Program-made: the position numbers and the translations under genes
Shown: positions 432 to 52,369 of the stretch, piece by piece
Position numbering within the stretch: the first letter of the stretch is position 1
Layout: each line of letters begins with the position of its first letter
Assembly (NCBI GenBank): GCA_017552965.1
Contig: JAFZNQ010000009.1
Span: forward strand, 220,564 to 284,563
From: Abditibacteriota bacterium
GTDB taxonomy: Bacteria > Armatimonadota > UBA5829
Direction: 5' to 3'
Length of the DNA: 64,000 bases
The notes under the pieces: generated by a model
Told to the model about the DNA's origin: nothing
Seen by the model: the letters and a program-made list of their open reading frames with translations, nothing else
The model's database searches: none

Positions 432-2244
432 AATCGTTGATAAGAGGCATCCTTGCCAGCGCCTCAAACTGGATATCTATACCCACCACGCCGATGAAAT
501 CATCGTCATCGTTGTATATGGGAGCAGACACGGTGATACACATCTCTCCCGTGTAGCGGGAGGTATAAAAATCGGTGATATATATCCCCTTGTTCTTCTT
601 GGCCTCCACGAACCACTCCCTTTCGCTGAAGTTCTCGCTGCCGGTGGCGGAGACGTATTTTTCGTTCAGCTGACTGGGGTTGATGTTTTGGGTGATGCGT
701 ATGCCCTTGCTGTCCGTCACGTAGGCAAACTGTATGAAGTCGTGCTTTCTGACTATATTCGACAGCTTGGCCTCTATGCCGGACACGTTCATCTTCTGGG
801 TGCAGGGGTCTTCCACTATCTCTTCTATGATCTTCTCGGTCAGGTCCAGAGCTCTGTTCTTGATGATATCAAAGTCGCTCTTGAAATAGTCGGGCAGATA
901 TATCCGGGCCTGAGCCAGCATCTCCGTATCCGATATGCTGGTCACCCTGCCGGCCTTGTACTGCTCGTGGACCCATTCGTTGATCTTGTAGAGACCCGGA
1001 TGCTTTTTGTCTATGGCGTATTCGCTCTTCAGGCCCAGGAAGGCGTTGACCCAGTGGGCTATGCCGGCCAGTCCGGACTTGTCCGTGACGTTCACTCTGG
1101 CAGGCCTGTTCAGTATCTTGGCAGTATCGAAGATGTTGTATATCTCTTCGTTCTTCAGGATGCCGTCGGCGTGGACGCCGGCGCTGGTCACGTTGAAGTT
1201 GGAGCCCACGAAGGGATAGTTGTCCGGTATGGTGAGGCCCAGCTCCTCGGTGTAGTATTTGGCCACCTCGGTGATCATACGGGTATTGATGCCGCAGTCG
1301 GAGCCCTTCAGGGAGATGTAGTCAAAGATGGCCCCCTCCAGCGAAGGATTGCCGGTCCTCTCTCCGAAGCCGAAGAGAGACGCGTTGACGGCGGCTGCTC
1401 CGTAGAGCCAGGCGGTGGTGCCGTTGACGCCCACCTTGTGAAAATCGTTGTGTCCGTGCCATTCCAGCCACTTGCCGGGGACTCCGCACTCGTTCTTGAG
1501 AGTGTAGATCATCTTGGGCACCGACCTGGGGAGGGCAGCCTCGGCCCAGGGCACGCCGTAGCCCATGGTGTCACACAGGCGGATCTTCACTTCCCTGCCG
1601 GCTTCCTTTGCCACCTTCATCAGCTCGGTGACGTAGGGGATCACAAAGCCCTCAAAGTCGGCTCTGGTGATGTCCTCCAGATGGCACCGCACCGCGTCCA
1701 GACCGAAGTCAAAGGCGTCCCTGACGAGAGAGATATACTGCTCCTTCACCTGCGCCCGGTCCTTTTTCAGCTTCAGATAGATGTGATAGTCCGAGCAGGA
1801 GGTGAGAATGCCCGTTTCCTTCAGGCCCATCTGCTTTACTATCTCAAAATCCTTCTTGGTGGCCCTGATCCAGCCGGTGACCACCGGGAACTTGTGTCCC
1901 AGCTCCAGACACTTGTTGACGGCGTCCTTGTCCTTGTCGGAATACAGGAAAAACTCCGAAAATCTGATGATGCCGTTGGGGCCGCCTATCTGGCTGAGAA
2001 AGTCGTACAGCTTGACTATCTCGCCGGCGGTATAGGGAGGCCTGGCCTGCTGTCCGTCCCGGAAAGTGGTATCTGTGATATAATAATCCTCCACAGGGTC
2101 CATAGGCACGCTCATGCCGTCAAAGACTATGGCCGGGACCTCCGTATAAGGGAATTGCTCCCTCAGCAGGTTGGGCTCCCGGGGGTTGACGAGCTCGCTA
2201 TGGTTTGCAAAGGTCTGAAGTCCGTTCGCTTTTTTGATTATCAT
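430..2244 (-). CDS. HMGL-like family synthase (2-isopropylmalate/homocitrate/citramalate/Re-citrate synthase relatives) with a C-terminal Cache/PAS-like domain
   Basis: ORF 430..2271; I prefer the ATG at 2242-2244 (MIIKKANG...), which has a strong RBS AAGAGGAGGacaag. The N-terminal TIM-barrel shows DRE-aldolase/HMGL motifs ITDTTFRDGQQ ... HGHNDFHKVGVNGTTAWLYGA. The C-terminal ~160 aa (DFIQFAYVTDSKGIRI ... KGIYITDFYTSRYTGEMCITVSAPIYNDDDDFIGVVGIDIQFEAL) look like a Cache/PAS ligand-binding fold. Confidence 0.75.
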   Translation of the reverse strand: MIIKKANGLQTFANHSELVNPREPNLLREQFPYTEVPAIVFDGMSVPMDPVEDYYITDTTFRDGQQARPPYTAGEIVKLYDFLSQIGGPNGIIRFSEFFLYSDKDKDAVNKCLELGHKFPVVTGWIRATKKDFEIVKQMGLKETGILTSCSDYHIYLKLKKDRAQVKEQYISLVRDAFDFGLDAVRCHLEDITRADFEGFVIPYVTELMKVAKEAGREVKIRLCDTMGYGVPWAEAALPRSVPKMIYTLKNECGVPGKWLEWHGHNDFHKVGVNGTTAWLYGAAAVNASLFGFGERTGNPSLEGAIFDYISLKGSDCGINTRMITEVAKYYTEELGLTIPDNYPFVGSNFNVTSAGVHADGILKNEEIYNIFDTAKILNRPARVNVTDKSGLAGIAHWVNAFLGLKSEYAIDKKHPGLYKINEWVHEQYKAGRVTSISDTEMLAQARIYLPDYFKSDFDIIKNRALDLTEKIIEEIVEDPCTQKMNVSGIEAKLSNIVRKHDFIQFAYVTDSKGIRITQNINPSQLNEKYVSATGSENFSEREWFVEAKKNKGIYITDFYTSRYTGEMCITVSAPIYNDDDDFIGVVGIDIQFEALARMPLIND

Positions 2245-2284
2245 CTTGTCCTCCTCTTGCGGGGGCGTCACAGACGCACCCTCT

Positions 2285-26984: not shown

Positions 26985-28904
26985 TTATTCGTAACAAAGG
27001 GTGATTGCCCTGCTGGGCACGTCGGCAAGCTCCTGATCGGCGTATGCCACAGTGACGAAGTATTTGAGAGAGCCGGTGGCAAACACTCCGGTGAGAGGCA
27101 CGGGACCAAAGGTAAAGCCTCCGTCGGCCCTCACGGTCACCACCTCGCTCTTCAGGACTCCGGAGATGTTGAGTATGCCGGTCTTGTTGTTGGAATACAT
27201 GACGGTGCATATCAGCATCCTGCCGGGCAGAGCCTTGCCGGTCACGGTGATATCCTTTACCCCCGCATTGTTGGCCGGGGACAGGATGTATATATCTCTG
27301 TCGTCCACGGCGGGAGCGGGAGCCTGAGAGTCGGCAGCGGCTCCGTCAATGAGCCCCGCGGTCACGGCGTCGGTCTCATCCTTGGGAGCGTCCACGGCAG
27401 GCGCCTCGGTGGCGGGAGCAGCGGGTGTCTCGGCCGCGGGAGCAGCGGGGGTCTCGGCTGCAGGTGCAGCGGGTGTCTCGGCTGCGGGAGCAGCGGGAGC
27501 CTCGGCCGCGGGAGCAGCGGGAGTCTCGGCCGCGGGAGCAGCGGGCGTCTCGGCCGCGGGAGCAGCGGGAGTCTCGGCTGCGGGAGCGGCGGGAGCCTCG
27601 GCTGCGGGAGCAGCAGGCGTCTCGGTTGCGGGAGCAGCAGGCGTCTCGGCTGCGGGAGCGGCGGGAGTCTCGGCTGCGGGAGCAGCGGGAGTCTCGGCCG
27701 CGGGAGCGGCGGAAGTCTCGGCCGCAGGAGCGGCGGGCGTCTCGGCCGCGGGAGCGGCAGGCGTCTCGGCCGCGGGAGCAGCGGGAGCCACGGGCGACAG
27801 TCTGGTGACCTTGCCTATCTTGCTCACCACGGCGTCCTTGCCGTTGACCGTCATCACGTATCCCGTATCGGAGGATATGTTGACGCCCCGACTGGACATA
27901 TAGACCATGAGCTTTGCCTTATTGAGGGCCTTGGCAGGCACCTTCATAAAGCCCACGTAGCTGCCCTCCGACTCTTCTCTGAGCACGGTCTTGGTGCCGT
28001 CCACGTATCTCAGGTCGCAGGACACTCCCACGTGAGAGGTGCCCTTCACGTTCACCAGTATCAGGTCGCCGGTCTTCAGGGCGTCGGGAGAGCTGACCAG
28101 CACGTCGTCTATGCTGAGCTCCACAGGAGCAGTGTCCGGAGTCACCGCAGGCTGAGCAGGCTCTGTCTTGGCAGGCTCGGTCTTGGCAGGCTCGGTCTTG
28201 GCGGGCTCCGCAGGCTTCACGGGCTCCGTCTTGGCAGGCTCGGTCTTGTCGGGCTCCGCAGGCTTCACGGGCTCCGTCTTGGCGGGCTCTGTCTTGACAG
28301 GCTCCGCAGGCTTCACAGGCTCCGTCTTGGCGGGCTCGGTCTTGGCAGGCTCGGTCTTGACAGGCTCCGCAGGCTTCACGGGCTTCACGTCCTCAAAGCC
28401 CACCACGATCAGGGTCCATATATTCTTGTTGTCCGGATTGATCCTGGCGTAGAAGCTGTTGCCCACCTTCAGCTTGTCCACGGACACCAGCACGGAGGAG
28501 GACTCCAGGTATATGGAGCACTTGTCCGCCACCACGTATTCGGGAGTGGCTTCGCCGTCGTCCACCGTCAGGGTGCTGCCGTTGATGCCCACTATGGTGC
28601 CGGATATCATGTCAAAGGATGCGGCCGCCTTGGTGATGATGTTGTTGTCATTCACCTCGCAGGACACGGAGTCGCCGGGAGAATAGTCCAGAAGGCCCAC
28701 CTCAAAGGGCTTGGTGTTCACCAGTCCTCTGGTCAGCCTGCTGGAGGCGTCCACCCGGACGGTCACGTCGCCGTCGGCTGTGGCTATGGTGATATTCTTG
28801 GAGCCGTTGTCCACGCTCCCGACCATACCGCTGACGGTCCTGGCGGAGACGCCGGTAGCCACTGCCAGCAAAAATATGCATACGCAGATCAAATATTTAT
28901 TCAT
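26985..28904 (-). CDS. Secreted cell-surface protein with two tandem low-complexity repeat arrays (PAEPVKTEPAKTE x~7 and PAAPAAET x~20)
   Basis: Signal peptide MNKYLICVCIFLLAVATGVSA; beta-rich domains separated by Pro/Ala/Glu/Thr repeat linkers; 639 aa. Confidence 0.75.
   Translation of the reverse strand: MNKYLICVCIFLLAVATGVSARTVSGMVGSVDNGSKNITIATADGDVTVRVDASSRLTRGLVNTKPFEVGLLDYSPGDSVSCEVNDNNIITKAAASFDMISGTIVGINGSTLTVDDGEATPEYVVADKCSIYLESSSVLVSVDKLKVGNSFYARINPDNKNIWTLIVVGFEDVKPVKPAEPVKTEPAKTEPAKTEPVKPAEPVKTEPAKTEPVKPAEPDKTEPAKTEPVKPAEPAKTEPAKTEPAKTEPAQPAVTPDTAPVELSIDDVLVSSPDALKTGDLILVNVKGTSHVGVSCDLRYVDGTKTVLREESEGSYVGFMKVPAKALNKAKLMVYMSSRGVNISSDTGYVMTVNGKDAVVSKIGKVTRLSPVAPAAPAAETPAAPAAETPAAPAAETSAAPAAETPAAPAAETPAAPAAETPAAPATETPAAPAAEAPAAPAAETPAAPAAETPAAPAAETPAAPAAEAPAAPAAETPAAPAAETPAAPAAETPAAPATEAPAVDAPKDETDAVTAGLIDGAAADSQAPAPAVDDRDIYILSPANNAGVKDITVTGKALPGRMLICTVMYSNNKTGILNISGVLKSEVVTVRADGGFTFGPVPLTGVFATGSLKYFVTVAYADQELADVPSRAITLCYE
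27400..27790. repeat. Coding tandem repeat, 24 bp unit (gcgggagcagcgggNgtctcggcY) x ~16, encoding PAAPAAET
   Basis: Near-identical 24 bp units in frame within the surface-protein gene; third-position variation only. Confidence 0.85.
28147..28390. repeat. Coding tandem repeat (~39 bp unit; ggctccgtcttggcaggctcggtcttg...) encoding PAEPVKTEPAKTE
   Basis: Repeated ggctcggtcttggcaggc / ggctccgcaggcttcac blocks within the same gene. Confidence 0.7.
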
Positions 28905-29024: not shown

Positions 29025-31493
29025 ATGAGACTCTGTAAATTCTATATATTTTCCCTGATACTTCTTCTTGCGGGGGCTGCCGCCTTTTCCCAGGGGAAGG
29101 TGACCACCAACGCCATCTATCAGGATTCCTCCGGCACCAAATACGAGTGGAAGATCATGGATTCGGGCAACATCATCTGGGACGGCATCTCCTACACCCC
29201 CTGCGGCGTCAGGGTGATCTTTGACAGCCTCTCTTCTCCCGACACCCACGCCCTCTCGGCCCGGGACAAGTCGGTGATAGGCGAGCTGGCTGCCTCCAAC
29301 GTGGACTCTGTGATCATCTCCAACGGCTATCAGCTCACCAATTCCGATCCCGCCGTGCTCCAGCAGATCATGGACCTGCTGGACGAAAACGGCATCAGAT
29401 ACGGCATAGAGCTGGGTGAGGAGACCGGCGATCCCCTTGCGGGCTACCCGGTGGACCCTGCCCGCTGGAGGATAGACGGCCCCTACCCCGACAAGGTCAT
29501 CACCGGCATGTGGAAAGACGTGGACTCCGGCCTCTACGTGGTGGTCAGCAAGTCCGACAGCTCCGTCATCGAGTCCGGCAGTCTGGAGGTCAACGCCAAC
29601 GGGCAGGCCACGGTAAATCTGGAGCGCTCTCTGGGCCCGGACACGGCCCTGCTGGTATATCCCCACCAGACCCGTTTCGGCAGCTTTGACATATGGGAAG
29701 GCTATGACGCCCTGAGAGACGTGATAGTCAAATACTTCTCTCAGGTCAGGCCCGGAGAAGGTCTGAGATTCTTTTACAATCCGGTGAACGCCTACAAACT
29801 GGCCTTTGCCGCCGGCGACGGCAGCTTCGTGCCGGTGAGCTCCAAGTTCTCTCTGGAATTCGAAGGCTATCTCACCAAGAAGCATTTTCACAACGGCATG
29901 CTCTCCCACAAATGGGGCATCAGCCCCAATCTGCCGGAGATATCCGACTATCTCAGCCTGCTGCCCCTCTGGGCCCAGCTGCGCAACTCCTCCAGAGGTC
30001 TGGGCCAGATGTACGACCTGTCCGGCCGCAAGTTCCTCAGGGCCAACACCAACGGCTCCTACTGGCAGGACCTGACGGACTTCAGGACGGACTCGGTCCG
30101 GGAATACATGTCCTCCGCAGGTGACGTGCTGAGGAAGAACGTGGCCAACGTGCCCATCATATACTCCGCCTGCAGGGACCGGGTCAATCAGACCTATTTT
30201 ATCAATGCGTCCTCCTCCAGCCCCGACGGCTTTGCCTACGTCTGCGACGGCGAGGACCGGGAGCTGGGCTACGACATATCCCTGCTCTACAATCTGAGCA
30301 ACACCTATCCCAAGACCACCTGGATCGCGGCGGTGAACCCCGCCATGAGCGTCGACAGCCTCATAGATCTGGGTTACAAGGGCTTCTTTTTTGACTACAA
30401 TGACGGCGCCGGCATCGCCAAAGCCAACGAGTTCAGGGGCAAGTGCCACAACATACAGGCCTACAGGCCCAACGTCATAGAGTATCCCACCTCTTCGGAG
30501 ATAGGCATCACCCCTCAGCTGCTGGACGAGCAGGGGCACACCTACTGGCTCCCCTCTCCCAAGGGCGCAGACGTCATGCGCTTCGGCGAGGACGTATTTG
30601 GCTACAACATAGTGGGCACCGGCGACTACGTCATATGGGCCCGGGAGGACAACACCCAGATCACCTTCCCCGGCATCAAGAACACGGCTCCCAAGGCCGT
30701 CTTTCCCGCCGACGTGGAGATAAAGAAGGCCAAGGCTGCCTCGTCCAGGTCCAACCCTCTGTACACCATGACCATCGGCACCCGTCCCACCGTGCTGCGC
30801 AACATCAGCTTTTCCCTGTTTTTCCCCAGGGAGACGGCCGAGGCGGAGATAGCCAAGATGGAAAGGCTGGTCAAGTCCACTCCCATAGACGATGACACGG
30901 AGAAAAAGCTCATGGACCTGAGCATCAAGAACATCAAGGAAGTGCTGAAAAACGGCGCCTTCGGCACCGCCTTCAGCATGGCCCGGGAGATCATAGGCCA
31001 GACCAGCCGTCTCAGCGACGCCAGCCTGTGGATCGAGTCCAGCACCCTGACCCGCACTGCCTTCACCGGCTTCAGGGCCCGCAAGGGCGCCACCGACGGC
31101 ACCGTGCTGCTGCTGGACGAGCAGGAGCGGGCTCCCCTGACGGACTACTACGCCTCCATGACCATCAACGTGCAGAACAACAAGTCCTACGAGCTCTGGA
31201 TAGCCATGTCCCGGAGCGCCGACTCTTCTCCCTGCGAGATATCCAACAGCGGCAGCCCCTGGATGGCGCCGGACACCTCCACGGAGAGGCCTTACGGCGA
31301 CGGCCTGGCCTGGTACAAGGTGGGCACCGCCAGCCTGTACGAGGGGCCCCAGACCATAGACGTAAAGGTCACCGGTCCCAATCAGGCCGGCAGATATTAT
31401 CTGGCCATCGACGCCATCCTGCTGGTGGCGGAGGACGAAGACTTTGTCCCGCAGGCCGACAGCAAGCCCGCCTTTGTGAACATTCTGAGGTAG
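29025..31493 (+). CDS. Large secreted protein of unknown function (822 aa)
   Basis: Signal peptide [24 protein letters not shown], no recognisable catalytic motif. TGgTATAAT extended -10 at ~28953-28961 and RBS AAGGA upstream; only 4 nt separate its stop from uvrA. Confidence 0.65.
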
Positions 31494-42249: not shown

Positions 42250-43377
42250 TCATTTTTGCTTGTCTTCATACAGCTCCGAGTCCGCCAGATTGATCAGGTC
42301 GGGCACCGAGTCGGCCTTGCTGCCGGTGACGCTGCCCATGGAGGCGCTGATGGTATAGCCCTTGTGCTTGGTGATATCCAGTATCTGCAGCCGCCGGACC
42401 ACGTCGCTCTTGATCTCGTCCAGCTCCTTTTTGATATCGCCGGTCCAGCTGTCCTTGACTATGACGAATTCGTCGCCGCCGTATCTGTAGGGTCTGGCGT
42501 TCTTGCCTCTGCACACCCGCTTCAGGACTCCGGCAAACAGCTGCAGGGCCACGTCGCCCTCATGATGGCCGTAGGTGTCGTTGATGGACTTGAAGCCGTC
42601 CAGGTCCAGCATGATGATGCCCCACTTCTTGTCCTCGGAGGCCTTGCGCTCCATATCCCTGAAGAGCTGGCGCCTGTTGTAGAGGTCCGTGAGCTCGTCC
42701 CGGGAGATATAGGCGGTGATGTTCTGGAAATAGCAGAGTATCATGCCCAGGGTGAGACCTATGGGCAGGAAGGCGGAGGCGGGCCACAGCACGTCCAGCA
42801 GTCCGAATACCACCAGGAGCAGGCAGAACTTGAGTATGTTGGCGTGGTCCTCTCTCTCGGAGTAGTGCTGCTTGTCAAAGTAGGCGATGCCGGAGTGGAC
42901 TATCAGTATGAGACAGGGCAGCCCCAGAGGGACGTACCACAGGTTGTACAAGGGGGTCCTGGTATAGAAGTCGGACCAGAAGAGGGACAGCCTGACCGGG
43001 GTAAGGATGCACAGGACCAGAAAGATGAGATGCAGCAGCCAGGACAGCCTGACCATCATGGGAGCCTTGTCCTTGAAGGTAAAGAGGGCCCCGCCGAAAA
43101 ACAGGCACACAGTGACGTAGAGAGAGGTCTTGAGAGCCAGATCGCAGACGTAATGCCACACCGGGGGCAGAGCGTCGCCCAGCCCGAACCACAGCAGCGA
43201 ATCCAGGGTGTAGATCATGATGAGCACTGCCCCGGATATCATAAATCTTTTGTGCCGGCTCACCTGATCGGATACGCCCCCCATCTTAGCGTAGTGGGCG
43301 TACAGGAAAAAGACTATCACCAGACTCAGGAACAAGAGCTCCAGATATGGCACCAGCGGCATTTCAAAAGGGATCAT
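42250..43377 (-). CDS. Membrane-anchored diguanylate cyclase (6-7 TM helices plus GGDEF)
   Basis: N-terminal polytopic membrane domain; C-terminal GGDEF with RYGGDEF active-site motif and RxxD-like I-site region; 375 aa. Confidence 0.85.
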   Translation of the reverse strand: MIPFEMPLVPYLELLFLSLVIVFFLYAHYAKMGGVSDQVSRHKRFMISGAVLIMIYTLDSLLWFGLGDALPPVWHYVCDLALKTSLYVTVCLFFGGALFTFKDKAPMMVRLSWLLHLIFLVLCILTPVRLSLFWSDFYTRTPLYNLWYVPLGLPCLILIVHSGIAYFDKQHYSEREDHANILKFCLLLVVFGLLDVLWPASAFLPIGLTLGMILCYFQNITAYISRDELTDLYNRRQLFRDMERKASEDKKWGIIMLDLDGFKSINDTYGHHEGDVALQLFAGVLKRVCRGKNARPYRYGGDEFVIVKDSWTGDIKKELDEIKSDVVRRLQILDITKHKGYTISASMGSVTGSKADSVPDLINLADSELYEDKQK

Positions 43378-43507: not shown

Positions 43508-43509
43508 GA

Positions 43510-43597
43510 CGGAGTAGGTGGGATTCGAACCCACGAGCGAGGAATCCCGCTACGGCATTTCCAGTGCCGCTCCTTAGGCCAGCTCGGACACCACTCC
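43510..43597 (-). tRNA. tRNA-Ser (anticodon GGA)
   Basis: Reverse complement GGAGTGGTGTCCGAGCTGGCCTAAGGAGCGGCACTGGAAATGCCGTAGCGGGATTCCTCGCTCGTGGGTTCGAATCCCACCTACTCCG. Anticodon stem CGGCA/TGCCG, loop CTGGAAA; long variable arm; 88 nt. Confidence 0.85.
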
Positions 43598-43732
43598 ATA
43601 CTGCCGCCGGGGCCCTGCTGGGCCGCCGGCTTGGTTCTTATGCAATTCAATGATACCAAATATGCCCCTCGTTTGTCAAGCAGACACCGCCCCGGGAGGC
43701 AAATTTGCAAAAAAAACTCTTCAGGGGCCTGC

Positions 43733-43761
43733 TTGTGGTTTTTGCGGGGGTGTGCTATAAT
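43733..43761 (+). promoter_or_regulatory. Sigma-70-like promoter (TTGTGG-17-TATAAT) for the secreted phosphodiesterase gene
   Basis: ttgtgg at 43733-43738; tataat at 43756-43761 with TG at -14/-15. Confidence 0.5.
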
Positions 43762-43788
43762 AAAGGCGCGGAATACAAGAGGTATTTG

Positions 43789-45387
43789 ATGAAAACCAAG
43801 CTGTTTATTTTTCTCGTCTGCGCCGTCCTTGCCGCGGCAGCGGCCTCCTGGGGAGCCGACCGCTACGTGTACAAGCACGTGGTCATCGTGGGCATAGACG
43901 GAGCCGGCAGCTTCACGCTGCAGACCCCCACTCCGAATATGGACCGGATATTCCGGCAGGGCGCATACACCACCCGCTGCCGGGCGTCCATCCCCACCAT
44001 CAGCGCCCAGAACTGGGGCTCCATGCTCCTGGGCGTCACACCGCAGACCCACGGTCTCACCAACGAGATCATCAGCGCCCGGACCTATGAGAACCGGGAG
44101 CATCCCACCATCTTCCGGATGGTGCGGGAGGCCATGCCCTCCGCCCGTCTGGGGTCCTTTTGCAACTGGAACCCCATCAACTACGGCATAGTGGAGCAGG
44201 ATCAGGGCGTGACCTTTGCCACCGCGGACGACGCGGCTCTCACGGTCAGGATCACCGACTACATCCTGGAGCAAAAGCCCGAGCTGCTGTTTGTGCAGTT
44301 TGACAACGTGGACCACGCGGGCCACACCTGGGGCTACGGCTCGGAAAAATATCTCCGGACCCTTACTCAGACGGACGTCTTCGTAGGCATCATCCATGAC
44401 GCCCTCAGGGGCGCCGGCATTCTGGAGGACACCCTCTTCATAGTCCTTGCCGACCACGGAGGCATCGGCACCGGCCACGGCGGCGTCACGGACGAAGAAA
44501 AATACGTGTTTTTCGGAGCGGCGGGCCGGACCGTATGCAGCAACAGCCGGCTGGACCTCTGCAGCAGGGACCTGGCCGCCATAGTCTGCCGGGCTCTGGG
44601 CGTCAGACCCCATCCCGTGTGGGATTCCTACGTGCCCAAAAAGCTGTTCCGGGACTATCCGTCTCCCCCGCAGAGGCCCCGGGCGCCGGCTCTCCGGCCC
44701 CGCAGCAGCGCCCCTACCCCCTCCGGCAGCCGGGCTCTGGACAAATATGCGGACACGGCGGCCCTCCGGTGCGCTCTCATGTTTGACAGCAGCCTCGGCT
44801 CCGCCTTCGGCCCGCTTCAGCCCGAAGTCCTCGGCAAGGCAGCCTATACGGAGGGCTGGTACGGACAGGCCTGCCGCCTGGACGAAAATAGCAGTCTCTC
44901 CTTTCCGGGCCTTTCCTTCGGCAGGGACAGCTTTGCCATATGTCTCTGGATGAAGACGGACCCGGGCCTGGAGGGAGACCCGGCGGTCTTTGGCAACAAG
45001 GACTGGGCCTCGGGCTACAACAGGGGCTTTGTGTATTGTTACAGAGGCGCCTTCAAGTTCAACGCCGGCGACGGAGACCGGGTCAGGTCCGACTTCGATT
45101 ATTACGCCCCGGAGGCCCCCGAGGAGGGCTGGTCCCACGTGATACTGTCGGTGAACAGAGAGACCGGCAAAGTGGACTACTACTGCAATTTCGAGCTGCA
45201 GTCCTCTGACGCTCTCGCAGAGGACCTCATGCAGACATCCTTTGACTCGGGCCTGCCCTTCAGGCTGGGCTCCGACGGCACCGACAGCCCCCAATACAAG
45301 ATGCGGGGCTCCTTTGACGACCTGCTCATATTTGACAGGGCCCTCACCCCCTCAGAGGTCGGCAGGCTGAAGGACTACTACATGTGA
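43789..45387 (+). CDS. Secreted alkaline-phosphatase-superfamily phosphodiesterase/nucleotide pyrophosphatase (type I phosphodiesterase-like) with C-terminal LamG/concanavalin-like domain
   Basis: I prefer the start at 43789 (MKTKLFIFLVCAVLAAAAASWGA signal peptide) over the tracked 43705. Metal-ligand motifs GIDGAG...T(P/T)..., DHGG, FDNVDHAGH; the C-terminal ~200 aa have a LamG-like signature ending ...GSFDDLLIFDRALTPSEV. Confidence 0.65.
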   Translation: MKTKLFIFLVCAVLAAAAASWGADRYVYKHVVIVGIDGAGSFTLQTPTPNMDRIFRQGAYTTRCRASIPTISAQNWGSMLLGVTPQTHGLTNEIISARTYENREHPTIFRMVREAMPSARLGSFCNWNPINYGIVEQDQGVTFATADDAALTVRITDYILEQKPELLFVQFDNVDHAGHTWGYGSEKYLRTLTQTDVFVGIIHDALRGAGILEDTLFIVLADHGGIGTGHGGVTDEEKYVFFGAAGRTVCSNSRLDLCSRDLAAIVCRALGVRPHPVWDSYVPKKLFRDYPSPPQRPRAPALRPRSSAPTPSGSRALDKYADTAALRCALMFDSSLGSAFGPLQPEVLGKAAYTEGWYGQACRLDENSSLSFPGLSFGRDSFAICLWMKTDPGLEGDPAVFGNKDWASGYNRGFVYCYRGAFKFNAGDGDRVRSDFDYYAPEAPEEGWSHVILSVNRETGKVDYYCNFELQSSDALAEDLMQTSFDSGLPFRLGSDGTDSPQYKMRGSFDDLLIFDRALTPSEVGRLKDYYM

Positions 45388-45390
45388 CCC

Positions 45391-45420
45391 AGGGCCTCCG
45401 GGCCCTTTTTTCCTTTTTTC
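45391..45420 (+). terminator. Rho-independent terminator after the phosphodiesterase gene
   Basis: gggcc-tccg-ggccc hairpin followed by ttttttccttttttc. Confidence 0.65.
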
Positions 45421-45542
45421 TCCCCGGTCCATAGACAGGACCGTCATATTTGTGTTATAATATTTATAAATAGATATTTATGGCCTGCCCCCGAGGGACC
45501 CGGGCCGACACCACACGCGAGAGGCATTGACACGACAATATC

Positions 45543-48512
45543 ATGAAAAACAAAGCGCTCGTATACCTTATTATCGGCGGCGTCATCCTGGCCGCCATCA
45601 TAGTCTTCGGCTCCCTCTGGATGAGGTCTGCCGCCGGCAAGGACACCAGGTCCGTCATCAGGAGCCTGAACTCCATGTATCTGGAGGAGCTGGCAGTCCG
45701 CCGCGAGCAGGTAGTGGAGAAAAACCTCAACGAGAACGTAAAGCTCATAGACATAGCCGTAGGCCTTATGACCGCCGAGGACCTCAGGGACACCGGGCAC
45801 CTCATGGCTTATCAGTCCCGTATGAAAAAGCTCTTCAAGCTGGAGCGCTTTGCCTTCGTCAACACCTCGGGCCACATCTATACCTCCACCGGCGTCAAGT
45901 ACGACATAGACGAGTATCCCTTTGACTACAAGACCATCAAAGGACCTCAGGTGGCCGTGAAAAACGTGGCGACCACTCACAAGACGGTGGTCATAGCCAA
46001 GCCGGTGGACAAGGAGATAGCCGTCAGCGGCGACCGGCTCACAGTCTGCTTTATGGAGCAGGACATGAGCGTGCTGCTGGAGGGCGCCTCCATGGACACC
46101 CATGACACCGAGTCCACCTTCTGCAACATCTACACCCGGGAAGGCATCCCCCTCAGCGAGCTGGTGCTGGGCGGCAAGGCCTCCGAGACCAATCTGCTGA
46201 ACGCTCTGGCCAACGCAGACTTTGAACAGGGCTATTCCTACGAGCAGACCGTCCAGGATTTTCAGGGCGGCAAAAAGGGCATGATAGCCTTTTCCTACAA
46301 GGGCACCCGTGAGATGCTGGCCTTTGTGCCCGTCAAGGGCACCGACTGGCAGCTCACCTATCTGGTGCGCGAGAGCGTGGTCAGCTCCCGTATCGGCTCC
46401 GTGTTCAACACGGTGATAGCCAGGAGCCTGGTCCAGTCCGTGGCCTCCGCGGTATTGCTGCTCATACTCTTTGGCATCATCATCACCCAGATGGGCAGAA
46501 ACGTGCGCCTGACCATGGAAAAGGCGTCTGCCGACCTGATCATGGCCCTCTCGCGGAACTACAAGTCCGTGTTCTACGTGGATCTGGACAATGACACCGC
46601 CGCCTGCTACAGGGAGGACTCGGTCCTCACCGACACTCCCCGTCTGAACCAGGTGGTCTCCTACAGACACGCCGTCACCACCTACTCCGCCAGACACGTG
46701 GCGCCGGAGGACAGGGACAAATTCAACGAGTTCGTGGAGCCGGACGCGGTGCGGACCAACGTGGCCAACAACAATCTGTCTCTCCGCTATCTGGAAATGA
46801 CTCCCTCCGGCGAAAGATACACCATGCTGAAGATAGCAGGCGTATCCCACGGCCCCGGCAGCTCCGGCATAGTGTGCATGGGCTTTTCGGACGTGGACGA
46901 AGAGACCCGCCAGTCTCTCCTGCAGCAGCAGGCGCTGCAGACCGCCCTTGACACGGCGGAGGAGGCCAGCAAGGCCAAGACCACCTTCCTCTCCAGCATG
47001 AGCCATGAGATCCGCACCCCCATGAATGCCATCATCGGCCTGGACAGCCTGGCTCTCAGAAACAAGGACCTGCCGGAGGAGACCAGAGATTACCTGACCA
47101 AGATAGGCAGCAGCGCCAAGCATCTGCTGGGCCTCATCAACGACATACTGGACATGAGCCGCATAGAGTCCGGCAGGCTCACCCTGCGCAGCGAGGAGTT
47201 TTCCTTCAGGGACACCCTGGAGCAGATCAACACCATGGTCATGTCTCAGTGCTCGGACAAGGGACTGGAATACACCTGTCAGATGCTGGGAGGCGTCAGC
47301 GACTACTACATCGGCGACAACATGAAGCTGAAGCAGGTGCTGATCAACATACTCTCCAACGCCGTCAAGTTCACCGATGCCCCCGGCAGCATCCGCTTTA
47401 CCGTGGAGCGCCGTGAGACCAACCAGAACCACAGCGTCCTGGTCTTCACCATCAAGGACACGGGCGCCGGCATGGACCAGGATTTCGTGGACCATGAGCT
47501 CTTCAAGCCCTTTACCCAGGCTGAGGCCGGCAAAAACAGCAAATACGGCTCCACCGGTCTGGGCATGGCCATCACCCAAACCATCGTGACTCTCATGAAC
47601 GGCGAGATCCATGTGGATTCCAAGAAGGGCGTGGGCACCACCTTCACCGTGACCATCACCCTGAAAAACGCCGACAGCAATCACGTGGTCTCGGGCTATC
47701 TGGACCTGGCCGATATGAGAGTGCTGATAGTGGACGACGAAGAGGTATCCGCCGAGCACGCCCGCATGGTACTGGAGGAAGTGAGCATCAAAGCAGACGT
47801 GAGCTACAACGGCCCTGACGCCCTGCGCATGGTAGAGGTGGCCCACACCAAGCAGCAGCCCTACAATCTGGTGCTGCTGGACTGGAAGATGCCCGAGATG
47901 GACGGCCTGCAGGTAGCGGAGCAGATCAGGTCCCGCTACGACAGCGAGACCACGGTCATCATCCTCACCTCCTACAACTGGGAGGAGATCTATGACCAGG
48001 CTCTCCACGTAGGCGTGGACAGCTTTTTGGCCAAGCCTCTCTTTGCCTCCAATATCATCAGCGAATTTGAGACCATAGCCCGCAAGAACAATATGCAGCT
48101 CCGCAGGGAGAGGCCCAAGGCCGAACTGAAGGGCAGGCACATCCTGCTGGCAGAGGACATCCTCATCAACGCCGAGATCATGACAGAGCTGCTGGAGATC
48201 AGAGAGGTCCAGGTGGACCACGCCGAGAACGGCGAGGAAGCCCTGGCCCTGTTTGAAAACCATCCCTCCGGCTATTACAGCGCCATTCTCATGGACATAC
48301 AGATGCCCAGGATGGACGGTCTGGAGGCTGCCAGAGCCATCAGAGCCTCCCTGCATGAGGATGCCAGGAGCATACCCATCATCGCCCTTACGGCCAACGC
48401 CTTTGACGAGGACGTGCAAAAGAGCCTGCAGGCAGGTATGAACGCCCACCTGAGCAAGCCGGTGGAGCCGGAGACTCTCTTTGAGACTCTGGAGACCCTG
48501 ATCGTCGATTAG
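45543..48512 (+). CDS. Hybrid sensor histidine kinase: periplasmic Cache-like sensor between two TM helices, cytoplasmic PAS-like region, HisKA, HATPase_c and two receiver domains
   Basis: TM1 at residues 7-27 and TM2 ~290-312 bracket a ~260 aa extracytoplasmic domain. H-box FLSSMSHEIRTPMNAI; N/G boxes (NILSNAVKFT, DTGAGM, GSTGLGMAI). REC1 (VLLDWKMPEMDG) and REC2 (ILMDIQMPRMDG); no HPt. Candidate promoter TAGACA-18-TGtTATAAT at 45432-45461. Confidence 0.88.
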   Translation: MKNKALVYLIIGGVILAAIIVFGSLWMRSAAGKDTRSVIRSLNSMYLEELAVRREQVVEKNLNENVKLIDIAVGLMTAEDLRDTGHLMAYQSRMKKLFKLERFAFVNTSGHIYTSTGVKYDIDEYPFDYKTIKGPQVAVKNVATTHKTVVIAKPVDKEIAVSGDRLTVCFMEQDMSVLLEGASMDTHDTESTFCNIYTREGIPLSELVLGGKASETNLLNALANADFEQGYSYEQTVQDFQGGKKGMIAFSYKGTREMLAFVPVKGTDWQLTYLVRESVVSSRIGSVFNTVIARSLVQSVASAVLLLILFGIIITQMGRNVRLTMEKASADLIMALSRNYKSVFYVDLDNDTAACYREDSVLTDTPRLNQVVSYRHAVTTYSARHVAPEDRDKFNEFVEPDAVRTNVANNNLSLRYLEMTPSGERYTMLKIAGVSHGPGSSGIVCMGFSDVDEETRQSLLQQQALQTALDTAEEASKAKTTFLSSMSHEIRTPMNAIIGLDSLALRNKDLPEETRDYLTKIGSSAKHLLGLINDILDMSRIESGRLTLRSEEFSFRDTLEQINTMVMSQCSDKGLEYTCQMLGGVSDYYIGDNMKLKQVLINILSNAVKFTDAPGSIRFTVERRETNQNHSVLVFTIKDTGAGMDQDFVDHELFKPFTQAEAGKNSKYGSTGLGMAITQTIVTLMNGEIHVDSKKGVGTTFTVTITLKNADSNHVVSGYLDLADMRVLIVDDEEVSAEHARMVLEEVSIKADVSYNGPDALRMVEVAHTKQQPYNLVLLDWKMPEMDGLQVAEQIRSRYDSETTVIILTSYNWEEIYDQALHVGVDSFLAKPLFASNIISEFETIARKNNMQLRRERPKAELKGRHILLAEDILINAEIMTELLEIREVQVDHAENGEEALALFENHPSGYYSAILMDIQMPRMDGLEAARAIRASLHEDARSIPIIALTANAFDEDVQKSLQAGMNAHLSKPVEPETLFETLETLIVD

Positions 48513-48544
48513 ACCGGGGAAAGGATATCAAGCTGCAGATATAC

Positions 48545-51376
48545 ATGAGCCAAGAACACACACCGCAAGAGTATCACAGATACCTGTCACCCGTTGACGT
48601 CTGGGCGCTGGCCTTCGGCTGTATGGTGGGCTGGGGAGCCTTTGTCATGCCCGGCAACACCTTTCTTCCCGCCGCAGGGCCCGCAGGGACCATTTTGTCC
48701 CTGCTGCTGGGCGCCGCCATCATGATGGTCATAGCTCTCAATATGACCTATCTCATGAGGCGTTATCCCTCCACGGGAGGCATATACGCCTACACCAAGA
48801 ACCTGCTTGGCAGGGACCACGCCTTTATCAGCTCCTGGTTCCTCACGGTGTCCTATATCACCATACTGTTTCTCAACGGCACCGCTCTGTTTCTCATATT
48901 GAGGACCATATTCGGCCCCTCGTTCCATGCCGGCGCCCACTACCACATAGCCGGCACGGACATTTACGTCAAGGAGGTGCTCACCTCGGTGCTGGCTCTG
49001 GCGGGAGTGGGCTCTATATTCATCTTTTCCAAGCCCTTCCTCCAGAAGCTGCACACGGTGCTGGCCATCTGCCTTTTTGCAGGCTTAGGGGCCCTCACGG
49101 TCATATGCCTCTCCCGGGGGGCAGTCACGCCGGACACTCTCTTTTCCTACGGGACCCTGGGCATCCACAAGGGCAATGCCATACTGGGCCTGATGGTCCT
49201 GGCTCCCTGGGCCTTCGTGGGCTTTGAGATCATCTCCTTTGACACGGCCCACTACAGCTTTAGCATCACCCGGAGCAACGCCGTGATCATCACAGCCATA
49301 GCGGCTGCGGCTCTGGCCTACATTGCCTGCGCCGTCATTTCCGTATCGGTGGTCCCGGACGGCTGCGCTTCCTGGCAGGAATACATCTCCGGCCTGGGCA
49401 GCAGGACGGGCGTGGAGTCGGTGCCCACCTTTTATGCGGCAAAGGCCGCGCTGGGCGACTGGGGGCTGGCTCTCGCCGGCTTTACGGCCCTGTGCGCCAT
49501 CCTCACGGGCCTCATAGCCTCCTACCGGGGCAGCATGCGTCTCCTGTCCACCATGGCCGAGGACCAGATACTGGGCCACATATTCAACGACTCGGACGCC
49601 TGCATACTGTTTGTCATGGCCCTGTCCATCATATTGTCCTTCCTGGGGCGCAACACTCTCATCAGGTACGTGGACCTCACCTCCTTCGGAGCCATAGTCG
49701 CCTACGGCTACACCTGTCTCACGGCGATGCTGTCCGCCAGGGCCGACGGCAGGTCCGCATTCGCGCTCCTGGGATGGGTCGGCGTGGCGGTATCCGTCAT
49801 ACTGGGACTGGTGCAGCTGGTACCGGGCATCCTGCCTGCGGCTCTGGACCCCATGTGCAAGGAGTCCTTTCTGCTCCTGTCCCTTTGGTGTCTTCTGGGC
49901 TTCGCCTTTTACTGGCGCACCATCAACCGCAACACTCTGTCCGAATACAGAAACCTGTCCTATTCCGGCATCATACTGTTTGCCATACTGATGTATTCTG
50001 CCATCATATGGATGTCCAAGACCCTGTATCTCAACGGGGATCCCCGGCATATGCACGCTCTGATCCGCATATGCACCGTCACGGTGGTGGGCATCATCAC
50101 GGCAGGCTCCCTGCTCATGTTTATCATACTGTCCTTCGTCAGAAAAAAGCAGATGGAGCTGGAGCACGAAAAGTTCAAGGCGGAGAACGCCCGCGAAAAA
50201 GCCCTGGAGGGCAGCAAGGCCAAGAGCCGCTTTTTGTTCAACATGTCCCATGACATACGCACTCCCATGAACGCCATACTGGGCTACACTGCCCTGGCCC
50301 GGAAGCAGGACTCTGCGGAGGTCATGAAGGGCTATCTGCAAAAGATAGACAAATCCGGCCGTCACCTGCTGGACCTCATCAACGACGTGCTGGAGATGAG
50401 CCGCATAGAAAACGACAAAAAGGAGCAGCAGCCGGAGCCCGTGGATATAGCGGAGCTCTTTGACGACCTGCGGGACCTCTTTGCCGAGCAGATGACCGAC
50501 AAGGGACTGGCCTTCACCGTGGACAACTCGCGCATCAGAAACCGTTTTATCCGCTGCGACAAGATATGCCTCAACAGAGTGCTCATCAATCTGCTGGACA
50601 ACTCCTACAAGTTCACCCCGGCCGGCACCGTGTCCGTCAGGGTCGAACAGACAGAGGACGCCCCCGCCGGCTCCGCTGCCTTTACCATCACTATCAGCGA
50701 CACGGGCATAGGCATGTCCGAGGAGTTCGCCGCCAATATGTTCAGCTCCTTTGAAAGGGAGCGCACCTCCACCGTCAGCGGCATCCAGGGCACGGGACTG
50801 GGACTCTCCATCACCAAGAGCCTGGTGGAGCTCATGGGAGGCACCATTACCCCGGTCACCACCGCCGGCAAAGGCACCACCTTTGTCATTGACGGACTCG
50901 TCTTTCCTGTCCTGCCTGCCGATGAAGCGTCCGCTCTGGCCGGTGAAGAGGCGGACACTGCCAATGCGGACTTTTCCGGCAAGAGGCTGCTGCTGGTGGA
51001 GGACAACATCATCAACATGGAGATAGCCGAGGAGATACTGGGCGAGATGGGCTTTGACATCACCACTGCCGACAACGGACAGGCGGCCATCGACACCCTC
51101 ACCTCTCCCGCCACGGGCCCCATAGATCTGATCCTGATGGACATACAGATGCCTGTGATGAACGGCTACGAAGCGGCGAGAGCCATCCGCTCCCTGGAGG
51201 ACCCCGGCCTCTCGCGCATCCCCATCATAGCCATGACAGCCAACGCTTTTCAGGAAGATATACGGAACGCTATGGAGGCGGGCATGCAGGGGCATATAGC
51301 CAAGCCCATCGACGTGAAGGATATGACCCGGACCATCGCCAAAGTCCTGAAAGAGGGACCGGTGGCCGGCGCATAG
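48545..51376 (+). CDS. APC-superfamily amino-acid/polyamine permease domain fused to a histidine kinase (HisKA + HATPase_c) and a receiver domain
   Basis: Residues 1-~520: 12-14 hydrophobic helices with APC motifs (DVWALAFGCMVGWGAFVMPGN, GGIYAYTK, AFVGFEII). Then H-box FLFNMSHDIRTPMNAILGY, N-box LINLLDNSYKFT, G-boxes DTGIGM / GTGLGLSI, and REC with LILMDIQMPVMNG. 943 aa as one uninterrupted ORF starting 32 nt after the previous kinase. Confidence 0.85.
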   Translation: MSQEHTPQEYHRYLSPVDVWALAFGCMVGWGAFVMPGNTFLPAAGPAGTILSLLLGAAIMMVIALNMTYLMRRYPSTGGIYAYTKNLLGRDHAFISSWFLTVSYITILFLNGTALFLILRTIFGPSFHAGAHYHIAGTDIYVKEVLTSVLALAGVGSIFIFSKPFLQKLHTVLAICLFAGLGALTVICLSRGAVTPDTLFSYGTLGIHKGNAILGLMVLAPWAFVGFEIISFDTAHYSFSITRSNAVIITAIAAAALAYIACAVISVSVVPDGCASWQEYISGLGSRTGVESVPTFYAAKAALGDWGLALAGFTALCAILTGLIASYRGSMRLLSTMAEDQILGHIFNDSDACILFVMALSIILSFLGRNTLIRYVDLTSFGAIVAYGYTCLTAMLSARADGRSAFALLGWVGVAVSVILGLVQLVPGILPAALDPMCKESFLLLSLWCLLGFAFYWRTINRNTLSEYRNLSYSGIILFAILMYSAIIWMSKTLYLNGDPRHMHALIRICTVTVVGIITAGSLLMFIILSFVRKKQMELEHEKFKAENAREKALEGSKAKSRFLFNMSHDIRTPMNAILGYTALARKQDSAEVMKGYLQKIDKSGRHLLDLINDVLEMSRIENDKKEQQPEPVDIAELFDDLRDLFAEQMTDKGLAFTVDNSRIRNRFIRCDKICLNRVLINLLDNSYKFTPAGTVSVRVEQTEDAPAGSAAFTITISDTGIGMSEEFAANMFSSFERERTSTVSGIQGTGLGLSITKSLVELMGGTITPVTTAGKGTTFVIDGLVFPVLPADEASALAGEEADTANADFSGKRLLLVEDNIINMEIAEEILGEMGFDITTADNGQAAIDTLTSPATGPIDLILMDIQMPVMNGYEAARAIRSLEDPGLSRIPIIAMTANAFQEDIRNAMEAGMQGHIAKPIDVKDMTRTIAKVLKEGPVAGA

Positions 51377-51448
51377 AATTTTGCCCCAACACAACGGGAA
51401 ACAGAGACGGAGCGTCGATGCTGCCGTATTTTACAAGGAAAAAATATC

Positions 51449-52369
51449 ATGAGACATGTATTACAAGCCCTGCTGGCAGTCGGCCTTCTGGCCCTGGCCG
51501 CAGGAGCGTTCTGCAACACCGTGAAGGTCGCTGTCCCCGCAGATCCGGAAGCATTCGCCCGGACGACGGTCGGCGCTCCCGAATACTGTGAGGAATACGT
51601 CACGGACACAGATATCTATACCTATCTGATCAGGGAATACGCCGACGTGACGATCGTCGAAAAAAAGGTGAAGATGAGAATGTTCACAGAGGACGTGAGA
51701 AAGGTCAACACCGTGTCCAGTGACAAGCAGTTCCTCACAGGCAGCGCCGACAAAACAAAGTGGGTGTCCCTCGAGACTCCCGGCGCCGGAGTATGCCGGG
51801 ACAGGATCTACAGCGTGACCAAAGACGGGGACACCGTCTCGGTCCTGGCCCTGCTGACCGCCTGGGGCAGCTCGCCTCTGCTGCGCGACGAAAACATAGC
51901 GCTGGACGAGATACAGAGCGGCAAAGCGGATGGAAGGACCGTGATACTGAGGACCATCCTGACCGCCCCCTTCTTTCAGTCCGACAACACAGGCAAGGTG
52001 ACGCAGGTGCCCGACTCCGCCGAGATGATCGCTCCCGACGTGGTCCGTCTGTCCTATGCCGACGGAGCCGTGGAGCACTGGATGCTGAAGCCGGACAGGG
52101 TGTTTGTCGCCAACAACAGACAGGGCGACCGGGACCCCGACAGGATGCTGCTGTGGACCAACGGCGTGGGCAAGGGCACTCAGCGCTCCCTCAACCATCC
52201 GGCCGAGTCCTGCCGCTTTGACCCCGACGTCTCCCGCGAGCCCTCATACGACAAGCCACAGGGCTCCCCCGCTCCGGACAAAAAGGCCCGGGCGGATGCG
52301 CCGGGCATATGGTCGGCCCTGGTGGCGCATATCAACGCCTTTTTTGCCCATATCTTCCGGGCAGCCTGA
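51449..52369 (+). CDS. Secreted protein of unknown function (306 aa)
   Basis: Signal peptide MRHVLQALLAVGLLALAAGAFC; no recognisable domain; followed by a strong terminator. Confidence 0.55.
   Translation: MRHVLQALLAVGLLALAAGAFCNTVKVAVPADPEAFARTTVGAPEYCEEYVTDTDIYTYLIREYADVTIVEKKVKMRMFTEDVRKVNTVSSDKQFLTGSADKTKWVSLETPGAGVCRDRIYSVTKDGDTVSVLALLTAWGSSPLLRDENIALDEIQSGKADGRTVILRTILTAPFFQSDNTGKVTQVPDSAEMIAPDVVRLSYADGAVEHWMLKPDRVFVANNRQGDRDPDRMLLWTNGVGKGTQRSLNHPAESCRFDPDVSREPSYDKPQGSPAPDKKARADAPGIWSALVAHINAFFAHIFRAA

Follow-up and report, generated by a model that had tools for sequence, protein, structure and literature searches.

Two adjacent hybrid histidine kinases, one with an APC-type permease domain, as a predicted kinase-only copy of a phosphorelay cluster of ruminant-gut bacteria

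Introduction

Where do two adjacent hybrid histidine kinases send their phosphate when neither contains an HPt domain and no response regulator gene accompanies them? This question is raised by the locus at positions 45543-51376 of a 64,000-nucleotide stretch of DNA assigned to an Abditibacteriota bacterium (assembly GCA_017552965.1, contig JAFZNQ010000009.1, positions 220,564 to 284,563; the whole stretch is called the window below). The two genes, here named HK1 (45543-48512, plus strand, 989 amino acids) and HK2 (48545-51376, plus strand, 943 amino acids), give the same two products in an independent public gene call on the contig. HK1 has an extracytoplasmic sensor and two receivers, and the kinase core and single receiver of HK2 are fused to a membrane domain of the APC permease type. 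Comparison with related loci led us to view the HK1-HK2 pair as a putative stripped-down, kinase-only copy of a cluster that is common in ruminant-gut bacteria. We consider it probable that the two kinases belong to a multi-kinase His-Asp-His-Asp phosphorelay which converges on an HPt protein and a cyclic di-GMP (c-di-GMP) phosphodiesterase, both encoded elsewhere.

Results and Discussion

Relatives of the APC kinase and their neighbourhood

HK2 was found to have at least 1355 homologous clusters at 90% identity, and the 120 matches listed are mostly full-length proteins of about 900-970 amino acids which share 52-55% identity with it. Most of the listed clusters are unnamed; those with a name are called either 'amino acid permease' or 'signal transduction histidine kinase/CheY-like chemotaxis protein' and come from Oscillospiraceae, Lachnospiraceae, Mogibacterium and other Clostridia, while homologues of HK1 are named 'response regulator' in public annotation. 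When one genome per species was scanned, 208 genomes were found to encode a relative of the APC domain, and the best match was 57% identical. All neighbourhood counts given here refer to the best 80 loci of these 208 species genomes with an APC-kinase relative; nearly all of them come from ruminant-gut metagenome-assembled genomes (MAGs), together with Ruminococcus flavefaciens ATCC 19208 and Lachnospiraceae bacterium FE2018. The loci were annotated with hidden Markov models (HMMs) of two origins, domains of the window itself and domains that Pfam had verified; samples were cross-checked with Pfam, and the calls, which are based on open reading frames (ORFs), split some frameshifted genes, for example in loci L014 and L055.

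A full orthologue of HK1, with a dCache part 44-51% identical to that of HK1, was present in 20 of the 80 loci. In 14 loci it was located immediately 5' of the APC kinase on the same strand (gap -3 to 48 nt); in three it followed the APC kinase on that strand, and in two it was in divergent orientation. A hybrid kinase with two receivers, whatever its type of sensor, adjoined the APC kinase in 38 of the 80 loci and was found anywhere in the locus in 47. Comparison of the near and distal flanks gave 57 dual-receiver kinases within 7 kb of the APC kinase versus one in 220 kb of distal flank, and the adjacency in 38 loci corresponds to a binomial P of about 1e-42 when chance is assumed at 2%, a value that we regard as generous. 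Three contexts viewed independently agree with this. The partner kinase can differ in its sensor: in locus L001 the upstream kinase, separated from the APC kinase by 32 nt, has PAS sensors in place of the dCache domain and shares 53% identity with HK1 over the stretch between the PAS domain and the C-terminus, while locus L003 has a divergent full-length HK1 orthologue of 50% identity and the APC kinase of locus L005 has no partner. The first-pass annotation of the window, which was made from the sequence alone, had proposed co-conservation of the two genes in related genomes as a check on its reading, and these counts bear it out. It had also taken the three receivers of the pair for an oddity; this does not hold, two receivers on the partner kinase being the rule for the class.

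The related loci also contain candidates for the rest of the relay. A protein which begins with a receiver and is about 565, 740 or 1065 amino acids long was encoded in 33 of the 80 loci, and all ten of these regulators that were scanned with Pfam contained Response_reg, GGDEF and EAL. The first GGDEF motif was degenerate in 33/33 regulators, while EAL(V/I)R was kept in 33/33 and DDFG(T/S)G in 30/33; phosphodiesterase activity is therefore predicted for them. A family of HPt proteins of about 112 amino acids was found in 25 of the 80 loci. All seven members scanned passed the Pfam Hpt cut-off (28-39 bits versus 24.6), and the motif HALKGSAGNLS was present in four of the 25 members and a close variant of it in two more. 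The gene order was regulator-HPt-APC kinase in five loci (L037, which is R. flavefaciens ATCC 19208, L042, L053, L082 and L084), regulator-HPt-PAS kinase-APC kinase in three (L054, L069 and L072) and regulator-HPt-kinase-HK1-APC kinase in one (L007). Of the loci, 49 extend at least 4 kb to both sides of the APC kinase; among these, 29 had a dual-receiver kinase, 29 had a regulator or an HPt gene and eight had neither. The form seen in the window, HK1 and the APC kinase alone within 8-10 kb, recurred in loci L026 and L040.

From these arrangements, the HPt family and the receiver-GGDEF-EAL regulator are the probable partners of the HK1-HK2 pair. Since relatives carry an HPt protein and a receiver-GGDEF-EAL protein, the output can be predicted to be c-di-GMP hydrolysis and not a DNA-binding regulator. 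The earlier description of the pair as an unusual orphan node has accordingly to be given up, as it recurs in many ruminant-gut genomes, in most of which it has its probable partners beside it, while the proposal that the kinases converge in a phosphorelay whose output genes lie elsewhere gains support from the comparison with relatives. What looked like an orphan in the window becomes a recognisable partial copy for which the form of the missing partners is predicted.

The window kinases stand apart from their relatives. They are about 55% identical to all of them, whereas most pairwise identities among the 120 listed relatives, taken over the APC domain, fall within 62-84% (5th-95th percentile). 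The NCBI label of the source MAG is Abditibacteriota and the relatives of its kinases are almost solely ruminant-gut Clostridia (Bacillota). The label and the outlying position suggest a horizontal transfer long ago or else a lineage that is divergent or was given the wrong label.

Domain architecture of HK1

HK1 consists of a first transmembrane (TM) helix, a dCache ectodomain, a second TM helix, a PAS domain, a HisKA/HATPase_c kinase core, receiver 1 and receiver 2. A hydropathy scan placed the TM helices at residues 5-23 and 296-314, on both sides of an ectodomain of about 270 amino acids (residues 24-295, positions 45612-46427). Pfam dCache_1 (PF02743) scored 18.8-22.2 bits on this ectodomain, under its cut-off of 45, and was likewise below threshold in eight of 16 HK1 orthologues (best E 2.3e-5); a profile of the ectodomain found nothing among PDB sequences. 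An AlphaFold model of residues 1-330, built with 16 sequences, had a pLDDT of 81.5 and consisted of a stalk helix (residues 2-74), two stacked beta-rich alpha/beta modules and a helix at residues 277-329. The results of a Foldseek search of the PDB with this model showed that the top 50 matches were all double-Cache ligand-binding domains, with E values of 7e-10 to 7e-8; they included Mlp37 (5ave, the top match, E 6.9e-10), Mlp24, Tlp3, PctA and mmHK1S-Z2. The ectodomain of HK1 is thus modelled with a dCache fold although the Pfam dCache_1 gathering score is not reached. An informal check of the list of residues invariant among HK1 orthologues did not find the invariant Arg/Trp of amino-acid-binding dCache domains in the membrane-distal module.

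The cytoplasmic region which follows (residues ~328-462, positions 46524-46928) had no Pfam match with its own sequence, and PAS_3 was matched by four of 12 members of its family (best E 8.7e-5). The AlphaFold model of residues 323-468 had a pLDDT of 81.9, and nearly all of its 50 best Foldseek matches were PAS or LOV domains, led by 3mr0 (E 1e-4, TM-score about 0.5). Its assignment as a PAS domain has moderate support from these models. PAS domains of the HK1 type are also found, frequently as tandem copies, in the partner kinases and regulators of the related loci. PF23198, which is precomputed for some HK1 orthologues, was considered for the PAS-like region and rejected, since this weak match, PDE8A_N/receiver-like in kind, falls on receiver 1.

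In the remainder of HK1, Pfam domains above cut-off were HisKA (residues 478-544) and HATPase_c (residues 591-708), which form the kinase core at 46974-47666, and two Response_reg domains. Receiver 1 (residues ~725-850, positions 47715-48092) has the DD pair, Asp780, the Thr and the Lys, and receiver 2 covers residues 867-983 (positions 48141-48491). The phospho-acceptors are His488 in the core and Asp780 and Asp918 in the receivers. The H-box His, N-box Asn, G1 Asp and G2 Gly were invariant in 118 homologues. Receiver 2 is 41% identical to the receiver of HK2 and is a relay-type receiver as in hybrid kinases of the TorS/ArcB/LuxQ kind.

Domain architecture of HK2

In HK2, a permease domain of the APC/SLC7 type precedes a kinase core and a single receiver. 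Pfam matches were AA_permease_2 at residues 14-431 (43.8 bits, cut-off 27), HisKA, HATPase_c and one Response_reg, and the public NCBI name of the family is 'amino acid permease'. The membrane domain occupies residues ~14-532 (positions 48584-50140) and contains 13-14 hydrophobic segments. A single-sequence search of PDB sequences gave no match for it; a profile of ten APC-domain sequences matched CAT1/SLC7A1 (9uat, E 1.3e-12) and also CAT4 and GkApcT, CAT1/SLC7A1 and CAT4 being cationic amino-acid transporters with 14 TM segments. The alignment showed that the G-W-G of TM1 in the HK2 family corresponds to the GxG of the transporters and that AFVGFE of TM6 corresponds to AFVGFD of CAT1. These positions, G29-W30-G31 and F224-V-G226-F227-E228 of HK2, were kept in 119-120 of 120 homologues, position 224 being F or Y. 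The polar residues R90-D91-H92, E339-D340, N370 and D377, in or near the TM segments, were conserved in 119-120 of the 120 and R369 in 117, and the mean column identity of the APC domain was 72%. These matches identify the membrane domain, at the level of sequence, as a predicted SLC7-type permease domain of the APC superfamily.

The last hydrophobic segment stops near residue 532 and the phospho-acceptor His569 lies about 37 residues farther on. No sensor or STAC domain lies between them, so that the last TM helix and the kinase helix are joined almost directly. The kinase core (positions 50219-50890) comprises HisKA at residues 559-623 and HATPase_c at residues 672-782, and the receiver (residues 816-931, positions 50990-51337) has Asp866 as its phospho-acceptor.

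For HK1 and HK2 together, the His, the N, G1 and G2 boxes and the DD, D, T and K residues of the three receivers were each conserved in 117-120 of 118-120 homologues. By sequence, both proteins are thus intact hybrid kinases, with all catalytic and phospho-acceptor residues in place. An unorthodox (tripartite) kinase of the ArcB/BarA/TorS/EvgS type was considered and rejected, as there is no Hpt domain and both proteins end in a receiver. NCBIfam equivalogs stayed below cut-off for both kinases (TorS, for example, at 356 and 300 bits versus 676.5), and the two cores resemble TorS, BarA, ArcB and LuxQ in a generic way only. The domain architectures of the first-pass annotation were upheld, Pfam and AlphaFold/Foldseek agreeing on dCache, PAS, APC and two plus one receivers.

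A clade of APC-type sensor domains

When 1.84 billion representatives were searched exhaustively with a profile of the APC domain, 415 matched at an E value of 1e-30 or better. Architectures were assigned to the 150 best of these 415 with HMMs built here. About 65 of the 150 were APC-kinase proteins, mostly with a receiver, about 20 were APC-GGDEF or APC-GGDEF-EAL proteins and 61 contained APC only, many of the latter being fragments and some full-length proteins of about 470-490 amino acids. Because one APC clade is fused to several signalling outputs, the domain is best seen as a reusable sensor module related to real permeases. In four loci a fusion of about 1450 amino acids, APC-GGDEF-receiver-GGDEF-EAL, adjoins the APC kinase (L035:5508-9905, L052:5363-9772 and, on the minus strand, L056:2385-6740 and L061:3351-6825). 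The copy in L061 is broken into three ORFs and no receiver was detected in it.

No paper on the fusion of an APC or amino-acid-permease domain to a histidine kinase or a diguanylate cyclase came up in a literature search, which is absence of evidence only. Prokaryotic transceptors were few in a 2024 survey (PMC11109136). What appears to be new here and uncharacterised is the class of APC-type sensors, together with the conserved cluster of several kinases, HPt protein and EAL regulator. Transporter-fused sensor kinases are held to be rare and the APC-sensor family is large, so that a class thought rare may be common.

Operon structure and absence of partner genes in the window

The HK1-HK2 spacer (48513-48544, plus strand) is 32 nt long and has no terminator-like site. 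A sigma-70-type promoter-like site, TAGACA-18-TATAAT with a TG upstream, is located at 45432-45461 on the plus strand, about 80 nt ahead of the HK1 start codon; it matches at 11 of 12 positions and is the best of four such sites in 6.5 kb, where shuffles predict 2.3. A terminator-like hairpin with a T-run (45391-45406, plus strand; 6-bp stem with five G-C pairs and an TTTTTCCTTT tail) closes the upstream gene and sets it apart from the kinase operon. Co-transcription of HK1 and HK2 is likely because of the 32-nt gap, the single strong promoter-like site and the terminator-free spacer, as had been proposed before. The base composition of the window is about 59% G+C and its real genes have a G+C content at third codon positions (GC3) near 0.8; the values for HK1 and HK2 are 0.83 and 0.79, respectively, and their codon-position G+C is like that of the rest of the window. 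Two antisense ORFs, 45444-48449 and 49085-51394 on the minus strand, were rejected as genes because they had no Pfam match and the wrong codon-position pattern (GC3 0.55 versus 0.79-0.83).

We scanned the window with Pfam on all large ORFs and with HMMs in six frames over all 64 kb. Among the large ORFs, Pfam found no Hpt domain and no receiver other than those of HK1 and HK2. The six-frame scan likewise confined receivers to the two kinases and detected zero EAL domains in 64 kb, and the profile of the HPt family gave a best E value of 0.87 over the window, where the HPt motif was not found either. The absence of HPt and response regulator genes, noted earlier for about 10 kb on either side, hence extends to the whole window, whose ends lie 45 kb before HK1 and 12.6 kb after HK2; no such gene belongs to the same operon.

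Proposed phosphorelay and alternative explanations

In the mechanism that we propose, HK1 would take an extracellular ligand through its double-Cache domain, the cytoplasmic PAS domain being also present, and HK2 would report occupancy or conformational cycling of its permease domain, probably with an amino-acid-like solute, its signal passing directly from the last TM helix to the kinase helix. Each kinase would autophosphorylate in response to its own signal and transfer the phosphate to its own relay-type receiver, which in HK1 would be receiver 2. The relay receivers of HK1 and HK2 would both feed a shared HPt protein, which would in turn phosphorylate the receiver of an EAL regulator and alter c-di-GMP hydrolysis. 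Receiver 1 of HK1 could be an extra input site, a phosphate sink or a docking site. The HPt and regulator genes of the source genome would be located outside the 64-kb window. Several points weigh against this mechanism. Every step past domain identification is drawn from gene neighbourhood in other genomes, the window has no HPt, regulator or EAL gene, and the partner genes may be absent from the source genome altogether. Moreover, the APC kinase has no nearby partner gene in eight of the 49 well-flanked loci, so that adjacency is common and not obligatory, and function could have diverged in proteins which are about 55% identical to all relatives and come from a MAG labelled as a different phylum.

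The two kinases might instead form an antagonistic pair in which one modulates the other, through hetero-oligomers or through the extra receiver of HK1 draining phosphate from the HK2/HPt branch, and the output would reflect the ratio of the two signals. RetS, which modulates GacS in Pseudomonas, has the layout kinase-receiver-receiver, and HK1 and nearly all partner kinases have two receivers, in a RetS-like layout, while the APC kinase has one. The tight operon gaps (-3 to 48 nt) would favour co-assembly, and the intact phospho-acceptors in both receivers of HK1 mean that receiver 1 could be a real second site. However, the kinase core of HK1 is wholly intact, with no mark of a dedicated inhibitor, and five loci (L037, L042, L053, L082 and L084) have the APC kinase, regulator and HPt with no second kinase; the APC kinase can therefore work alone, and we regard antagonism as unlikely. 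Another reading, that the pair is a stranded remnant which came into the lineage, or was left there, lacking its HPt and regulator genes and is by now non-functional for its original pathway or rewired by cross-talk to HPt or regulator proteins unrelated to it, draws on the lack of any partner gene in 64 kb, the outlying identity of the window proteins (~55% versus 62-84% among relatives), the Abditibacteriota label of the MAG as opposed to the mostly clostridial named relatives of the kinases, and flanking housekeeping and sugar genes which are unrelated and not conserved near the pair elsewhere. Against this, both ORFs are full length, the catalytic residues and the conserved polar TM residues are intact, codon-position G+C equals that of the rest of the window and a strong promoter-like site is in place. 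The kinase-only form is also found in L026 and L040, which distant partners would explain better than decay. We hold a remnant to be quite improbable.

It may also be asked whether HK2 is chiefly a working amino-acid permease, with a kinase and receiver that regulate transport or only report flux, and no dedicated sensor. The NCBI family name points this way, as do the AA_permease_2 score above its cut-off, the profile matches to CAT1, CAT4 and GkApcT with the substrate-site motifs of TM1 and TM6 kept, the stand-alone proteins of 470-490 amino acids in the APC clade and the example of CbrA, a known transporter-kinase fusion that transports histidine (PMC13022988). Against this, the clade is fused to kinase cores in about 65 of 150 representatives and to GGDEF or GGDEF-EAL in about 20, which is the behaviour of a sensor module, and the gene is located in signalling clusters and not beside catabolic or transport genes. 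A permease function in the first place seems to us very improbable, and it overlaps with the phosphorelay reading, since transport and sensing can coexist.

The phosphorelay reading can be extended. The APC domain of HK2 might represent an undescribed class of prokaryotic transceptors derived from SLC7-like permeases, in which an amino-acid-like, possibly cationic, solute drives a kinase or a diguanylate cyclase/phosphodiesterase through the last TM helix and which, with a dCache kinase and a dedicated HPt protein, sets c-di-GMP and hence surface attachment by nutrient supply in ruminant-gut anaerobes; we offer this extended version as a conjecture that is rather doubtful in its entirety. The gene neighbourhood provides a wiring that can be tested, two or three hybrid kinases acting through one HPt protein on an EAL phosphodiesterase, and this wiring would tie nutrient sensing to c-di-GMP in fibre-degrading rumen bacteria. 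Cultured strains with the system are R. flavefaciens ATCC 19208 and Eubacterium xylanophilum.

In an Oscillospiraceae relative (L003:11589-19690), and also in L004, genes for transglutaminase-like, T2SSF/T2SSE-type pilus or secretion and GGDEF proteins lie between the regulator and the HPt gene. This gene order hints at a pilus or adhesion system under control of the relay.

Comparison with known systems

In Vibrio harveyi, the hybrid kinases LuxN, LuxPQ and CqsS, which have no HPt domain, converge on the stand-alone LuxU and from there on LuxO. As in the proposed cluster, several hybrid kinases with differing sensors use one small HPt protein and one regulator, and NCBIfam LuxQ was among the best partial matches to both cores (321 and 258 bits, far under the cut-off of 1200). 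The Lux output is a sigma-54 activator, whereas that of the cluster is a receiver-GGDEF-EAL enzyme, and the kinases of the cluster, unlike those of the Lux system, share one operon and have dCache/PAS and APC sensors. A second likeness is with Pseudomonas, in which PA1611, ErcS' and SagS signal to HptB, and in which the GacS/RetS/LadS network also has orphan hybrid kinases with a separate HPt (PMC5812489, PMC8543379). These networks share the multi-kinase design, the orphan hybrid kinases and the separate HPt of the proposed relay. They differ from it in the 7TMR-DISMED2 sensor of RetS and LadS, which is unlike those of HK1 and HK2, in the lack of a transporter-type kinase, in their outputs (an anti-sigma antagonist and Rsm small RNAs) and in the scattering of the kinase genes over the genome. 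By analogy, the Lux phosphorelay, together with the HptB and Gac networks, would be the closest counterpart of the proposed wiring.

On the output side, VieA of the VieS-VieA system of Vibrio cholerae is a receiver-EAL phosphodiesterase. In Pseudomonas putida, CfcR has the architecture receiver-GGDEF-EAL and is dependent on CfcA, a hybrid kinase (PMC6849547). In both systems, as in the cluster, a hybrid kinase controls a regulator with c-di-GMP domains, and they may be the closest analogues of the predicted output. However, CfcR acts as a cyclase while the regulators of the cluster are predicted to be phosphodiesterases (degenerate GGDEF in 33/33), the sensors of CfcA and VieS differ from those of HK1 and HK2, and the window itself has no regulator gene.

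The closest known transporter-kinase fusions to HK2 are CbrA, CrbS and RpuS, to which HK2 is alike in concept without being a member of their group. CbrA binds and transports histidine and has been called a rare 'transceptor' (PMC13022988), and the SLC5-STAC histidine kinase family to which CbrA, CrbS and RpuS belong has been described (PMC9100948). Like HK2, these proteins of Pseudomonas, Vibrio and Sinorhizobium combine a transporter domain of the LeuT fold and a histidine-kinase core in one polypeptide. Their transporter domain is of the SLC5 type, whereas that of HK2 is of the APC/SLC7 type (matches to AA_permease_2 and AA_permease and none to SSF). CbrA and CrbS have a STAC domain, while HK2 has no STAC match, no STAC/PAS linker and about 37 residues between the last TM segment and the His. 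HK2 is a hybrid kinase with a receiver and a proposed HPt relay, in contrast to the classical kinases of the CbrA type which feed an NtrC-type regulator, and its family is found in Gram-positive ruminant-gut anaerobes, unlike the hosts of CbrA, CrbS and RpuS. In yeast, Ssy1 of the SPS sensor is a member of the APC/amino-acid-permease group that became a receptor for external amino acids (PMC12958826). It is eukaryotic, does not transport and acts with a protease complex and not with a fused kinase; the likeness to HK2 is one of concept only.

Neighbouring genes and other features of the window

The genes around the pair are those that the first-pass annotation had described, a phosphodiesterase with a LamG-like domain, a tRNA-Ser and a secreted protein with no assigned function. 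The Phosphodiest + Laminin_G_3 gene is located upstream at 43705-45387 and tRNA-Ser(GGA) at 43508-43598. Downstream, 72 nt past HK2, the gene at 51449-52369 (plus strand) encodes a protein of 306 amino acids with an N-terminal signal-like hydrophobic segment and no Pfam or NCBIfam match; as no terminator-like site separates it from HK2, it may be co-transcribed with the kinases. The flanking genes were rejected as conserved partners, since the phosphodiesterase/LamG, 306-amino-acid, EamA and PHP proteins were unmatched in the 80 related loci.

The sole other c-di-GMP gene of the window (42250-43377, minus strand) is located 2.2 kb upstream of the pair on the opposite strand, between tRNA-Ser and a PHP-like gene. 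It encodes a multi-TM GGDEF protein of 375 amino acids that lacks a receiver; the GGDEF motif is intact, and about six TM segments are located in the N-terminal part. A link between this protein and the kinases is possible; its matches in related loci are by the generic GGDEF domain alone.

The window otherwise contains housekeeping and sugar genes, among them mutS, mutL, ruvAB, uvrA, his genes, ackA-pta, coaD and carAB, and genes for a GHL10 hydrolase, a solute-binding protein and a mannitol dehydrogenase. The ORFs 29025-31493 (plus strand, 822 amino acids) and 26985-28904 (minus strand, 639 amino acids) had no Pfam or NCBIfam match and have coding-type GC3 values of 0.83 and 0.75, respectively. 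A further ORF of 613 amino acids (430-2271, minus strand) combines an isopropylmalate/citramalate-synthase-like domain at residues 64-383 (PDB 6e1j, E 1e-22) with a C-terminal Cache-like module at residues 475-605 (dCache_1, 68 bits versus a cut-off of 45) that is weakly similar to the ligand-binding domains of Tlp3 and Mlp24; a small-molecule-binding module of the Cache type is odd on a cytosolic enzyme.

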